Below are positions 61 through 4,897 of a DNA stretch of 39,305 nucleotides, in pieces. Positions within the stretch are counted from its first letter, which is position 1. Each line of letters opens with the position of its first letter. Below the pieces are notes generated by a model. The model worked only from the letters and a program-made list of their open reading frames with translations, made no database searches and was not told where the DNA came from. Origin of the DNA: an uncultured Gammaproteobacteria bacterium (GTDB taxonomy: Bacteria > Patescibacteriota > Microgenomatia > CAZETR01 > Amesbacteraceae); NCBI GenBank assembly GCA_964356705.1, contig CAYHIN010000002.1:1-39305 (forward strand), written 5' to 3'. Both the position numbers and the translations under genes were made by a program.

Positions 61-129
61 GTCATCCTGAACGACCCCCCGGTCATCCTGAGCGCCACCC
101 CGTCATCCTGAGTGAAGCGAAGGATCCAG
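61..129. repeat. Three tandem heads of the GTCATCCTGAGC hairpin repeat family; only the third copy is complete
   Basis: GTCATCCTG starts at 61, 82 and 102 (spacing 21 and 20 nt). The third copy continues as GTCATCCTGAGTGAAGCGAAGGATCCAG (102-129). That copy supplies the last 9 codons and the stop of tatD on the minus strand. Confidence 0.8.
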
Positions 130-837
130 CTTAAATAATTTCACTGCATTTTCTGTCGTTATCTTGTCAATTGTATCAATACTTACCCCCCTTGTTTCAG
201 CCAAAACCTTTGCCACCAGCCGTACATTAGCCGGATTGTTTACTGATCCTCGCAAGGGTTCTGGGGCCAGATATGGACTATCTGTTTCTATTAGTAGTCT
301 ATCCTCAGGCACGGCCGAGGCGACCGCTCGCAAATCATGGCTGTTTTTGAAAGTCAGTATCCCCCCAAAACTTATATAACATCCCAGCCCCACAAACTTT
401 TTAGTCCACTCTTGATCTCCTGTCCAACAATGCATTTGGATGCCCCTTAGCACTTCGCGCTTAGCACTTAGCACTGAATACACTTTTTTAAACTGGTTTC
501 GACAGTGGACAACCAGAGGCAATCCAGTTTCTTTGGCGAGTTCAATGTTTACTTTGAATAATTGAACTTCCTCTTCACTATCCGAATCCAGTCCACATTC
601 CCCAATCGCCACCACTTTAGGCTCTTTTGTCATTCTGAGCAGCAGCGAAGAATCCAGTTCTTTACTCATTTCTTCAGGGTGAACTCCCACAGTAGCCCAG
701 ACGTTTGAATGTTTTTGCGCCAGCTCAATCGCCTTCTCGCTGCTCTCAAAATCTGCTCCACAGCAGATCATCTGCAGATCTAGACCTGCCCACATCTCCT
801 CTGGCACTTCATACAAATGACAATGTGCATCAATCAT
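103..837 (-). CDS. tatD: TatD-family metal-dependent hydrolase/DNase
   Basis: 244-aa ORF with MIDAHCHL at the N-terminus. Also carries GVHPEE, AIGECGLD, VVHCR, MHCWTG and ETDSPYL motifs typical of the TatD amidohydrolase fold. TGA stop at 103-105. Confidence 0.9.
   Translation of the reverse strand: MIDAHCHLYEVPEEMWAGLDLQMICCGADFESSEKAIELAQKHSNVWATVGVHPEEMSKELDSSLLLRMTKEPKVVAIGECGLDSDSEEEVQLFKVNIELAKETGLPLVVHCRNQFKKVYSVLSAKREVLRGIQMHCWTGDQEWTKKFVGLGCYISFGGILTFKNSHDLRAVASAVPEDRLLIETDSPYLAPEPLRGSVNNPANVRLVAKVLAETRGVSIDTIDKITTENAVKLFKLDPSLHSG
445..480. repeat. Heptamer-phased cassette (CTTAGCA/CTTCGCG/CTTAGCA/CTTAGCA/CTGAATA) inside tatD
   Basis: Direct reading of 446-480. The first 32 nt (445-476) match 12617-12648 at 28 of 32 positions. 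Confidence 0.85.
629..660. repeat. Hairpin repeat copy inside the tatD CDS
   Basis: GTCATTCTGAGCAGCAGCGAAGAATCCAGTTC aligns base for base with 844-875. The stem arms are ATTCT/AGAAT here versus ATCCT/AGGAT there, a compensatory change. Confidence 0.8.
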
Positions 838-2307: not shown

Positions 2308-2334
2308 GTTTGTTTTATTTTAACTCAAAATAAC

Positions 2335-2355
2335 AAAAAAACCGCCTCTCGGCGG
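2335..2355 (-). terminator. Intrinsic terminator-like hairpin 27 nt upstream of the metG start
   Basis: The minus strand reads CCGCC-GAGA-GGCGG followed by seven T. The stem is 5 bp, all G:C pairs, with a GNRA-type loop. Confidence 0.55.
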
Positions 2356-2381
2356 ATCTCTGACAACGTCAAATACCGCCT

Positions 2382-2423
2382 TTAAGCGAGCACTTGCATC
2401 ATCATGTAACTTCTGGTGGCCAT
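2382..2423 (-). CDS. Candidate 13-codon leader peptide MATRSYMMMQVLA
   Basis: The ATG at 2423 lies 8 nt after a TATAAT box. The frame carries three consecutive ATG codons and ends at TAA, 1 nt before the first GGCGG arm. No homology support is possible for an ORF this short. Confidence 0.3.
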   Translation of the reverse strand: MATRSYMMMQVLA

Positions 2424-2430
2424 AAGATGG

Positions 2431-2459
2431 ATTATATAACTATCTAACTTAACTGGCAA
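2431..2459 (-). promoter_or_regulatory. Sigma70-like promoter TTGCCA-N17-TATAAT
   Basis: On the minus strand, -35 TTGCCA sits at 2459-2454 and -10 TATAAT at 2436-2431, separated by a 17-nt spacer. The promoter lies downstream of the TrpR-like gene stop. Confidence 0.55.
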
Positions 2460-2479: not shown

Positions 2480-2845
2480 TCAACTCTCACGTCGAAGTTT
2501 AAACATTTTTTTAATTGTCTCTTCGGCGTGAGTAGCCCATTCCTCTGCCATTATTTTTTTCAGCGCCATCTTCCACCCCTCACTTTTAAGTCCTTGTTGC
2601 ACCACAGCCACCGTAGCGGACGATACTTTCAGATTTTGTTTTATATTTTCATAGCTTCTTTTTTTAGTTAGCCAATATCCGACCGCCAGTCTCTTAGATA
2701 TTGCCGACAGTTCAGTAGTCGTCAGGATTGCCGCCATTATTTTTTCGGCTTCCTCTGGGGTTTTTATGTCAGCCAGCAATTGGTTCCACATTTGCGTCAC
2801 CTGTTTTTCCAGCAGATTATTTACTTTTCTTTTCGAGACTTGCAT
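2480..2845 (-). CDS. TrpR-related YerC/YecD-family DNA-binding protein
   Basis: 121-aa ORF. The segment ELSAISKRLAVGYWLTKKRSYENIKQNLKVSSATVAVV resembles the Trp-repressor-like helix-turn-helix of YerC/YecD proteins. Confidence 0.75.
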   Translation of the reverse strand: MQVSKRKVNNLLEKQVTQMWNQLLADIKTPEEAEKIMAAILTTTELSAISKRLAVGYWLTKKRSYENIKQNLKVSSATVAVVQQGLKSEGWKMALKKIMAEEWATHAEETIKKMFKLRRES

Positions 2846-3182: not shown

Positions 3183-4032
3183 GAATACTGCCCTTATTCT
3201 AGCAATTATTATCCTCGGCTTTTTAGTCAGTCTGTTTCTTATTCGCAGGTGGCTCACGCAGCCAAAGTCCTCTGATCCTGCGGTAACTTCTTGGCTCTCC
3301 TCAGTCCAGTCTTCTCTAGACAGTTCCACTCGTCTCATGGCCGATGTCCAGCGGTCACTAGGTGAGATGTCCGAGGTGGGCCGCGGCATCAAGTCTCTCC
3401 AGGACTTTCTGGCTTCACCCAAATTGCGGGGTGGTCTAGGGGAAGAGATCTTGTCCCAGATGATCGGCGAGAGTTTTCCCAAAAACGCTTTTCATCTTCA
3501 GTATTCGTTTAAGTCCGGGGTAAAAGTCGATGCGGTCCTCAAGACGGATGCTGGGTTGCTGTGCATTGACTCAAAGTTTCCCACCCAAGAGTTTGTGGTG
3601 TCAGATATCAAAAAGCATATTTCCGATATCGCCAGAAAATATATCCTGCCCGAGGAAGGCACCATGGATTTTGCCCTCATGTATATTCCCTCAGAGAGTA
3701 TTTATTACGAGGTAGTGAGCAGCCGCGAGCTCACCAAGTTTTCCCGCGATCTTAGAGTCTATCCCGTTTCCCCAAACACTCTTTACGCCCATCTTCAGGT
3801 CTTGCTTCAGTCTCTTCAAGGAAAGGAATTGGAGGCCAAGTCTCGCCAGATATTGCAGACTCTGCGCGCCGCCCAAAAAGATTACGATCACCTGACTGAA
3901 AACATGGGAGTCCTCAATCGTCATCTGACCAACGCCTTCAACCAAATGAGTAATGTTAGTAACAGCGCAAACACCCTGGGTCAAAAACTGACCCACACCC
4001 ACATGCTAGAATCTGCTCATGAACAATCTTGA
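3181..4032 (+). CDS. rmuC: DNA recombination protein RmuC (short form)
   Basis: It starts at MNTALILAIIILGF, an N-terminal TM helix as in RmuC proteins. Further RmuC-like motifs are LCIDSKFP, RKYILPEEGTMDFALMYIPSESIYYEV and VYPVSPNTLYAHL. The 5' 453 nt of the track ORF 2728..4032 are rejected as coding. Confidence 0.8.
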   Translation: MNTALILAIIILGFLVSLFLIRRWLTQPKSSDPAVTSWLSSVQSSLDSSTRLMADVQRSLGEMSEVGRGIKSLQDFLASPKLRGGLGEEILSQMIGESFPKNAFHLQYSFKSGVKVDAVLKTDAGLLCIDSKFPTQEFVVSDIKKHISDIARKYILPEEGTMDFALMYIPSESIYYEVVSSRELTKFSRDLRVYPVSPNTLYAHLQVLLQSLQGKELEAKSRQILQTLRAAQKDYDHLTENMGVLNRHLTNAFNQMSNVSNSANTLGQKLTHTHMLESAHEQS

Positions 4033-4897
4033 TCTAATTTATACAATCACCTCTGACAAACTTCGTCTCCCGGGCATTCACTTTATTCCAGAGAATCCTA
4101 CAGATATATGTCTATTAGTAATTCACGGCATGAGTGGCAACATTCTGGAAAATTATTGGGGTGATGTATTAGGGCGGTATGCAGTTTCTCAAGGCGTAGG
4201 TTGCATCTTTTCTCACAATAGAGGATTTGGTCAGATCAGCGATCCCTCGTATGTTAATTCCAGCAAAAATCTGCACGCCGGAGCTGTGTATGAGAGATTT
4301 TCAGATTGTGTTTTGGATATCGATTCTTGGGTGGGTACTACCAGGAGTTTGGGTTACTCTAGAATAATTCTTCTAGGTCACAGCCTCGGTGGTCCAAAAG
4401 TAATCAAATATATGAGTGAGAAAAATCCCACAGAGATCGTCAAGGTGATTCTCGCATCCGCAGCAGACATGGTAGGTCTATTCTATAAAGATGAACCAAA
4501 CGCGGCAGCATTAATGTCAGAGGCACAGAGTAACATTTCGTCGGATCAACCAGAAAAACTACTTTCATCAAAGATTTGGGATTGGTATTTCTTGAGTTCG
4601 CAGACTCTAGTCGACTTATTCAGTGAGCATGGTCCAGCTGATCTGCTTCCAATTATTCGAAACCCTGATGTTTACCCAGAGCTCGCATCGATAAAAGTTC
4701 CCGTGCTTGCTTTCTATGGTGAGCACGACGATTCATATGTTCTCTCTACTCCTCAAGCCGACTTAGATCGAATGAAATCCAAAGCAACAAACACACCCAC
4801 ATTTACAACCGCCATCATCCCGGGTGCAAACCACGTTTATTTGGATAAAGAAAAAGAAATGTCAGCAGTTGTACTGTCGTGGATAAAGTCGCAATGA
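4019..4897 (+). CDS. Alpha/beta-fold hydrolase
   Basis: 292-aa ORF with the nucleophile elbow GHSLGG, an LVIHG oxyanion region, and late acidic and His residues (GEHDD, ANHVY). Confidence 0.8.
   Translation: MNNLDLIYTITSDKLRLPGIHFIPENPTDICLLVIHGMSGNILENYWGDVLGRYAVSQGVGCIFSHNRGFGQISDPSYVNSSKNLHAGAVYERFSDCVLDIDSWVGTTRSLGYSRIILLGHSLGGPKVIKYMSEKNPTEIVKVILASAADMVGLFYKDEPNAAALMSEAQSNISSDQPEKLLSSKIWDWYFLSSQTLVDLFSEHGPADLLPIIRNPDVYPELASIKVPVLAFYGEHDDSYVLSTPQADLDRMKSKATNTPTFTTAIIPGANHVYLDKEKEMSAVVLSWIKSQ

Follow-up and report, generated by a model that had tools for sequence, protein, structure and literature searches.

Is the gene for methionyl-tRNA synthetase (metG, MetRS) controlled through translation of a methionine-rich leader peptide in an uncultured, ultra-small bacterium of the candidate phyla radiation (CPR)? 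This question is raised by a 172-nt gap between metG and a Trp_repressor-family gene, both read on the minus strand of contig CAYHIN010000002.1 (assembly GCA_964356705.1), of which positions 1 to 39,305, a stretch of 39,305 nucleotides referred to below as the window, were analyzed. The gap contains a promoter-like motif, a short open reading frame (mini-ORF) with a run of three Met codons and a terminator-like hairpin (Table 1). A sequence-only reading, whose coordinates for all of these elements proved exact, had interpreted them as a candidate methionine-sensing leader-peptide attenuator in front of metG. Comparison with related genomes, where the device was found in 12 other lineages, supports this interpretation, and judging from sequence the element is very probably a ribosome-mediated (leader-peptide) transcription attenuator sensing charged elongator Met-tRNA(Met). 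In a broader form we consider it rather probable that the Microgenomates clade employs an undescribed Met-specific leaderless attenuator, turning on a DUF62 hydrolase of S-adenosylmethionine (SAM) and MetRS at low Met-tRNA.

A conserved leader family in Microgenomates

The nearest MetRS relatives all belong to Patescibacteria (CPR) of the Microgenomates group (Levy-, Davies- and Gottesmanbacteria). Relatives were gathered by protein searches followed by retrieval of the contigs encoding the matches (L numbers below), and assemblies from Hainich groundwater (ERZ1292624) were found to contain the same strain with an identical leader. As a side observation, 11 metagenome-assembled genomes (L001-L003, L005, L008, L010, L016, L019, L021, L022 and L050) have records entitled "uncultured Gammaproteobacteria", "Pseudomonadales bacterium" or the like, while their MetRS and gene context place them in Microgenomates/Patescibacteria; these taxonomy labels are apparently wrong.

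In total, 13 distinct leader variants are present in Microgenomates genomes, i.e., that of the window and those of 12 other lineages (Table 2). Each has a TAnnnT box 6-10 nt 5' of the leader ATG, a mini-ORF of 13-22 codons, 2-4 internal Met codons within a 5-codon span and a GC-rich hairpin followed by T6-8. A TTGNNN motif, read by eye, lies 17-18 nt 5' of the -10 box in 10/12 other variants; the -10 box is TGn-extended in L052, L069, L070 and L071, and no clear -35 element is seen in L052 and L069. The promoter of the window (TTGCCA/TATAAT) is the top sigma-70-like match within the first 6 kb, with 11/12 positions. The sequence-only reading had named a lack of conservation of the mini-ORF or the alternative pairing as evidence against itself; the opposite was found, since the promoter, the mini-ORF frame, the in-frame Met cluster and the terminator are kept in the 13 variants, as is the location of element 2, which lies at the stop codon in 12/13. 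L052 may serve as an illustration: its YerC-like protein (the neighboring Trp_repressor-family product) is 85% identical to that of the window, and its terminator differs (CCCCGC-TAG-GCGGGG-T7), with GCGGG at the mini-ORF stop. The leader ATG of L052 overlaps the YerC stop codon (TGA) as ATGA.

Met codons account for 14-33% of leader residues vs. 1.9% in the long open reading frames of the window. They occur in a variety of patterns (MMM, MMMAM, MSMM, MGMMM, MMAMM, MMQM, MSMQM, MMDMM) with varying spacer codons, and the 13 leaders together contain 45 internal ATGs in frame and none out of frame. Since the ATGs stay in frame while the intervening residues vary, selection appears to act on codons rather than on an RNA motif. 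Conservation of the leader peptide is limited to the Met cluster and the last, structure-coding codons, which bears on the idea that the mini-ORF encodes a functional Met-rich micropeptide, or serves as an ermC-like general sensor of translation, its link with metG being incidental. A peptide always 13-22 residues long and the ability of leader peptides to work in trans (peTrpL; PMC7298713) agree with this idea; the absence of peptide conservation outside these two parts and a strict association with Met-related genes make it extremely improbable.

The association with methionine was also recovered by a detector that makes no reference to Met codons, requiring a -10-like box, an ATG-initiated open reading frame of 8-30 codons and a stop codon within 60 nt or less of a GC-rich terminator. 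Applied to both strands of the window and all collected loci (959 kb), this detector returned 24 matches, 23 of which are leaders, all Met-rich, the remaining match (L043) being unrelated; the set yielded no leader for any other amino acid.

Table 1. Features of the metG leader region and flanking genes in the window
Feature	Position	Strand	Remarks
-35 hexamer TTGCCA	2454..2459	-	leader promoter
-10 hexamer TATAAT	2431..2436	-	17-nt spacer from TTGCCA; 7 nt 5' of mini-ORF ATG
Leader mini-ORF MATRSYMMMQVLA, 13 codons and TAA (2384-2382)	2382..2423	-	ATG at 2423
Candidate regulatory codons 7-9, AUG AUG AUG (ATGATGATG)	2397..2405	-	Met run in mini-ORF
Region 1, UCGCU, codons 12-13	2385..2389	-	predicted to pair with element 2 in a weak 1:2 hairpin, -4.3 kcal/mol
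Region 2 (element 2), GGCGG	2376..2380	-	1 nt past stop codon; predicted 5' strand of antiterminator; duplicates terminator 3' arm
Antiterminator inner helix UUUGAC-GUU-GUCAGA	2359..2373	-	predicted by folding
Region 3, CCGCC	2351..2355	-	common to predicted antiterminator and terminator
Terminator loop GAGA, region 4 GGCGG (2346-2342) and T7 (2341-2335)	2335..2350	-	
SAM_HAT 3'-end relic TTATTTTGAGTTAAAAT, with TAAAAT at 2322-2317	2317..2333	-	match to SAM_HAT codons
metG, methionyl-tRNA synthetase, 477 aa	874..2307	-	PF09334; GTG start at 2307; putative regulated gene
YerC/TrpR-like gene, Trp_repressor family	2480..2845	-	PF01371, E = 7e-12; neighbor, outside the switch

Table 2. Leader peptides of the 13 variants
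Variant	Leader peptide
Window	MATRSYMMMQVLA
L052	MNTRSYMMMAMASA, then stop codon
L001	MTNKSYMMMAMTSA
L054	MKITRDMMMAMESA
L068	MKVTLFMMMSMSV
L071	MKFEFVSMMSMQTV
L070	MNKSISIMMQMASA
L069	MKLSVYMMAMMTD
L066	MDKNVVAMGMMMTC
L064	MNFAFVSMSMMAPD
L013	MNSVIVLTMSMQMRNSSKGGTI
L072	MKQTLKTSTMAMVAV
L073	MTIQSSVMMDMMLAS

Alternative pairing, folding energies and ribosome geometry

In 12/13 variants the top Watson-Crick partner of the terminator 5' arm starts between -3 and +2 nt from the end of the stop codon, and the shuffle P for a partner near this codon ranges from 0.0004 to 0.027 per variant. The 5' arms fall into four sequence classes (CCGCC, CCCCGC, GCCTCC and CCTCCG), and element 2 matches its own class in every variant. 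Alignments of the leaders by MAFFT were unusable for counting pairs, as their stems were 1-2 columns out of register; pairs were therefore counted in a structure-anchored, N-padded alignment of the 13 variants. All 65/65 cells of the five-pair antiterminator core are paired, two pairs changing on both sides (GC/CG and GC/AU/CG). The covariation score of the antiterminator is 0.364 vs. at most 0.118 for slid-partner controls, and that of the terminator is 0.443 vs. at most 0.092, neither value being reached in any of 500 shuffles. Because the same two 5'-arm columns covary with both partners, the covariation is three-way, connecting element 2, the 5' arm and the 3' arm across the four classes, in line with the covariation that the sequence-only reading had proposed to look for.

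The same reading had described two mutually exclusive hairpins, and the computed energies agree with this description. In a ribosome model whose front edge is 12 nt past the first nucleotide of the A-site codon, stalling at the Met codons before the 3' arm is transcribed leaves free RNA that is predicted to fold into the 2:3 antiterminator in 13/13 variants (-14.5 to -21.6 kcal/mol). Once the ribosome has reached the stop codon, element 2 is masked in this model and the terminator state alone can form (-10.1 to -15.8 kcal/mol). The antiterminator is the more stable of the two in 13/13 variants, with -15.1 vs. -13.5 kcal/mol in the window, where it is two-tiered (GGCGG:CCGCC stacked on UUUGAC:GUCAGA). 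The caution that both stems have only 5 bp holds for the outer tier of the antiterminator but overlooked the inner helix UUUGAC/GUCAGA within the 20-nt loop; since this helix stacks beneath, the concern is limited to the outer tier. The last Met codon lies 8-16 nt 5' of element 2, and element 2 lies at most 12 nt from the stop codon. In the model this spacing fits the scheme known for trpL, a ribosome at the stop codon masking region 2 and a Met-stalled one leaving it free.

A U-rich stretch follows element 2 on its 3' side in 13/13 leaders (e.g., window 2375-2368; CGGAGGTTTTTT in L073; GGAGGCTTTTT in L064), and element 2 with this tail forms a direct repeat of the terminator 3' arm with its U-tract. 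This repeat and the weak 1:2 hairpin could together cause pausing or, in RNA free of ribosomes, terminate transcription early.

Known RNA devices for this group of genes did not account for the element. Searches against Rfam gave no match at the gathering score in the window and 12 related loci, and none at E of 10 or below in positions 2200-2600. A T-box (RF00230, with Stem I specifier, T-box sequence and antiterminator bulge) was rejected on these grounds and in view of the ~90 nt available; a riboswitch for SAM, S-adenosylhomocysteine or methionine was rejected as well, the sequence outside the stems not being conserved. More generally, one may consider a ligand-binding RNA (e.g., a small SAM/methionine riboswitch) or a protein-controlled attenuator (e.g., acting through the YerC/TrpR-like protein), the AUG run being kept as RNA. 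SAM and Met genes are often riboswitch-controlled and a YerC-like gene is near the leader in most variants; against this, Rfam gave no match up to E = 10, the 13-23 nt from element 2 to the terminator are too little for an aptamer, the AUGs keep the frame set by a 5' AUG and a fixed stop codon (45 vs. 0) although the intervening nucleotides vary, and outside the Met cluster strict conservation is confined to structural features. Such a device thus appears highly improbable. Covariance models of the Rfam Trp, His, Leu, Thr and Phe leader families also had no match in the window and related loci, which is expected for another amino acid and phylum, and therefore argues against homology and not against the same mechanism.

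The proposed attenuation mechanism

What the analysis shows are the sequence elements, their conservation and covariation, the energies and the geometry; the start of transcription, the stalling, the termination efficiency and the response to methionine are inferred, and the switch would work as follows. Transcription would start about 7 nt past TATAAT, so that the RNA would begin at or next to the leader AUG and be translated without a Shine-Dalgarno sequence. With ample Met-tRNA, the ribosome would reach the UAA and cover the GGCGG of region 2, located 1 nt beyond; the CCGCC of region 3 would then pair with the GGCGG of region 4, and the resulting hairpin with U7 would terminate transcription before metG. 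With scarce Met-tRNA, the ribosome would stall with one of codons 7-9 in the A site, leaving 4-10 nt between its front edge and region 2, and region 2 would pair with region 3 to form the two-tier antiterminator, blocking the terminator and allowing RNA polymerase to read into metG. In the relatives, the same switch would control a SAM hydrolase gene translationally coupled to metG.

Leaderless initiation, as assumed here, appears to be usual in this clade. In the related metG loci that lack the leader, TAnnAT boxes are found 5-10 nt 5' of the start codon (13/25 loci) and are almost absent elsewhere, suggesting that leaderless or near-leaderless mRNAs are the rule; the location of TATAAT 7 nt before the mini-ORF ATG likewise implies such a transcript. 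If leaderless translation is the norm of the clade, the missing Shine-Dalgarno sequence of the mini-ORF is explained.

The leader could instead act mainly on translation, with the 3:4 hairpin blocking ribosome access and a Met-stalled ribosome opening it. There is a precedent in the mycobacterial leaderless Cys small open reading frames (sORFs), which reportedly govern access to a ribosome-binding site (10.1101/834739), and the downstream start codon abuts the U-tract in L068 and is 4-10 nt away in L052, L054, L064, L069 and L013. However, every variant has U6-8 directly after the GC-rich stem, a signature of intrinsic termination that occlusion would not need, the start codon is 27 to ~80 nt from the hairpin in the window, L001, L066, L071, L072 and L073, and no Shine-Dalgarno sequence is available for sequestration, making predominantly translational control unlikely.

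Putative regulated genes and origin of the window arrangement

The gene following the terminator encodes a SAM hydroxide adenosyltransferase (DUF62/SAM_HAT; PF01887 and PF20257) in 12/13 lineages. As a rule metG comes next, overlapping SAM_HAT or, in two lineages, separated from it by a small Cupin_2 gene (L070:2499-2834 and L073:2578-2892). Among 51 species-level metG loci the leader is found in only two, both with an adjacent SAM_HAT gene, and it is present 5' of every SAM_HAT gene whose upstream sequence was covered. An unannotated 390-aa protein takes the place of metG after SAM_HAT in L064/L065, and in L072 SAM_HAT stands alone; because SAM_HAT occurs in these loci without a following metG, the leader tracks SAM_HAT rather than metG. 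The leader appears ancestrally to head a SAM_HAT(-metG) operon. Enzymes of the DUF62 family convert SAM to methionine and adenosine, and their physiological role has been described as unresolved (PMC12120602). The products of SAM_HAT and metG would both raise the supply of Met-tRNA.

The direct junction of leader and metG in the window is best explained by loss of SAM_HAT through a deletion. The sequence TTATTTTGAGTTAAAAT (2333-2317) matches SAM_HAT codons D-Y-F-G-L-K-L in 16/17 nt of L001 and 15/16 nt of L052, a score reached by 0/2000 shuffles. This finding also concerns the TAAAAT box at 2322-2317, from which, as the sequence-only reading had pointed out, metG might be transcribed independently of the hairpin. 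The box is present but lies within the 17-nt relic and may therefore be regarded as inherited coding sequence (Leu-Lys codons); no TTGNNN -35 hexamer was seen by eye 17 nt 5' of it. As an evolved metG promoter it was accordingly downgraded, although it may still fire.

The TAAAAT box is part of the simplest competing explanation, in which the hairpin ends transcription of the YerC/TrpR-like gene as its intrinsic terminator, TAAAAT drives a near-leaderless metG mRNA, and the mini-ORF and second GGCGG are due to chance. Such an arrangement, lacking a mini-ORF, exists in L010 (a YerC-like gene, a terminator, a TACAAT box and the metG ATG); 13/25 relatives without the leader have a -10 box located 5-10 nt 5' of metG, and the window alone is not significant. 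The device nevertheless recurs in 12 other lineages, and the gene called just 5' of the leader is on the opposite strand in L054, L066, L068, L064 and L072, so that the terminator cannot end an upstream gene there; this explanation was rejected on the strength of these divergent variants. In addition, the leader has a near-consensus promoter of its own in 13/13 variants, the TAAAAT relic lacks TTGNNN 17 nt upstream, and in six variants (L052, L054, L064, L068, L069 and L013) the downstream start codon is 0-10 nt past the U-tract, leaving no space for a separate downstream promoter. The leader terminator of the window lies 124 nt past the YerC stop codon, and a perfect T7 is found only here among the four loose terminator-like sites of the 39-kb window; with canonical terminators otherwise nearly absent, it is not a routine end-of-gene signal. 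For the window as well, we therefore consider a terminator of the upstream gene very unlikely.

Evidence weighing against the attenuator

A number of observations weigh against a methionine-sensing attenuator and should be set beside the above. Taken alone, the window is statistically weak and not clearly above chance: ATGATGATG occurs once vs. 0.63 expected, with at least one copy in 47/100 shuffles, and a 5-nt complement of the terminator arm has a shuffle P of 0.02 beside the stop codon and 0.13 anywhere in the spacer. Two variants depart from the pattern, L072 with just two internal Met codons and L013 with element 2 inside the mini-ORF. The alignment used for counting pairs was fitted to the proposed structure and is thus biased towards it, and the variants share descent, with perhaps 3-4 independent switches of the arms. 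In L052, L001 and L068 the minimum-energy fold of the ribosome-free RNA is an extended antiterminator and not the terminator, hence co-transcriptional kinetics would matter. Region 1 (the last sense codons, CCGC in most other variants) can pair with element 2, and the 1:2 hairpin is predicted in 13/13 variants but is weak (-2.6 to -7.0 kcal/mol, shuffle P 0.01-0.40).

Further objections are physiological. Methionine and its synthetase also charge the initiator tRNA that is required for translation of the leader, making methionine a special case. A shortage of Met lowers formylmethionyl-tRNA; fewer ribosomes would therefore load on the leader, favoring termination and opposing induction. Moreover, metG is essential, and as the gene stands behind a terminator with a GTG start and no Shine-Dalgarno sequence, basal read-through or the relic promoter must supply MetRS. 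The TAAAAT relic could indeed be a weak promoter for metG.

Comparison with known systems

In the sources consulted, Trp, His, Phe, Leu, Thr, Ile/Val and Cys are the amino acids with reported or predicted cases of classical attenuation, pheM-pheST of E. coli being a classical attenuator of synthetase genes. No methionine-codon leader was found in Rfam or the literature searched, as the sequence-only reading had supposed, although absence there is not proof. For Actinobacteria, no RNA element was reported for methionine operons, and leaders of trpS and leuS were predicted in Streptomyces (PMC1262725); a His leader precedes hisS paralogues in bacilli (PMC2965389). With these attenuators of aminoacyl-tRNA synthetase genes (pheM-pheST, trpS/leuS, hisS) the element shares a cluster of cognate codons in a short open reading frame, a stop codon beside region 2, mutually exclusive hairpins and a synthetase target. 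Theirs are led by a Shine-Dalgarno sequence, whereas here methionine would be sensed by a leaderless mini-ORF in a CPR/Patescibacteria host, and the apparent ancestral first target is a SAM hydrolase and not a synthetase.

The trpL leader of the E. coli trp operon is similar in size (14 codons vs. 13-15 here), in having 2-4 regulatory codons for a rare single-codon amino acid, in the position of its stop just before region 2, in the 1:2 / 2:3 / 3:4 layout and in the U-tract terminator shortly before the first structural gene. The present regions are much shorter (cores of 5-9 nt), the 1:2 hairpin is weak, no Shine-Dalgarno sequence is found and the putative regulated genes are not biosynthetic.

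In Firmicutes and other bacteria, metG/metS and Met/SAM genes are known to be controlled by Met T-boxes and SAM riboswitches (S-box and others). The target genes of these RNAs are similar and they, too, choose between terminator and antiterminator, but they comprise 100-300 nt, whereas the element described here has ~90 nt and no tRNA- or ligand-binding architecture, its proposed sensor being the translating ribosome.

In its mode of initiation the element resembles the mycobacterial polycysteine sORFs (Canestrari et al., 10.1101/834739). They share with our leaders a leaderless first-cistron sORF with a codon run for a single amino acid, in which stalling remodels the downstream RNA and controls operon genes for that amino acid; they reportedly expose a sequestered ribosome-binding site and thus act on translation, whereas here a canonical intrinsic terminator with a U-tract is present.

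Overall, what appears to be new on a known mechanism is the sensed amino acid, the targets, the phylum and the leaderless initiation, so that a transcription-terminating example would be added to the recently recognized class of leaderless sensory sORFs. To our knowledge, very little is known about gene regulation in CPR/Patescibacteria, and if our interpretation is true, this compact, sequence-defined switch of ~115 nt would be the first described RNA regulator of the candidate phyla radiation that senses an amino acid. It would also tie SAM_HAT to methionine supply: co-transcription with metG under a Met-codon sensor predicts release of Met from SAM or (R,S)-SAM under limitation. On this view DUF62 would be a salvage enzyme ("SAM to methionine") that is induced by starvation, in organisms that presumably cannot synthesize methionine themselves.

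Additional observations

A YerC/TrpR-like gene (PF01371) is located near the leader in most variants (L052:1070-1429, L001:27-233, L070:1329-1682, L054:165-527, L066:36-401 and L068:160-522, besides the window), either directly upstream or beyond a divergent Peptidase_M29 aminopeptidase gene. Its product might additionally regulate the leader promoter, or the proximity could be plain synteny.

Several loci contain further repeats between the terminator and the SAM_HAT start. Two separate lineages have an inverted repeat without a U-tract (L066:~1760-1795, TCCCCCTCTTAAC-TTAAGAGGGGGA; L071:~1765-1795, TCCCTCTCTTAAT-CTAAGAGAGGGA), which may be a candidate operator, an RNA stabilizer or a small mobile repeat, and other GC-rich hairpins are found in L072 and L073. 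A ~75-nt insert in L001 (~345-418) carries a long inverted repeat (ATATGAAAGGAT...GGATCCTTTCATAT) and is absent from its close relative L052.

Most genes of the window genome presumably terminate by means other than canonical intrinsic terminators. Downstream of metG, the window has one intact 244-aa TatD open reading frame (103-837, minus strand), whereas in the assembly L062, which encodes an identical MetRS, the corresponding region (3971-4701) is called in two pieces, a 153-aa open reading frame and a TatD fragment of 96 aa, perhaps owing to the assembly or to a frameshift.

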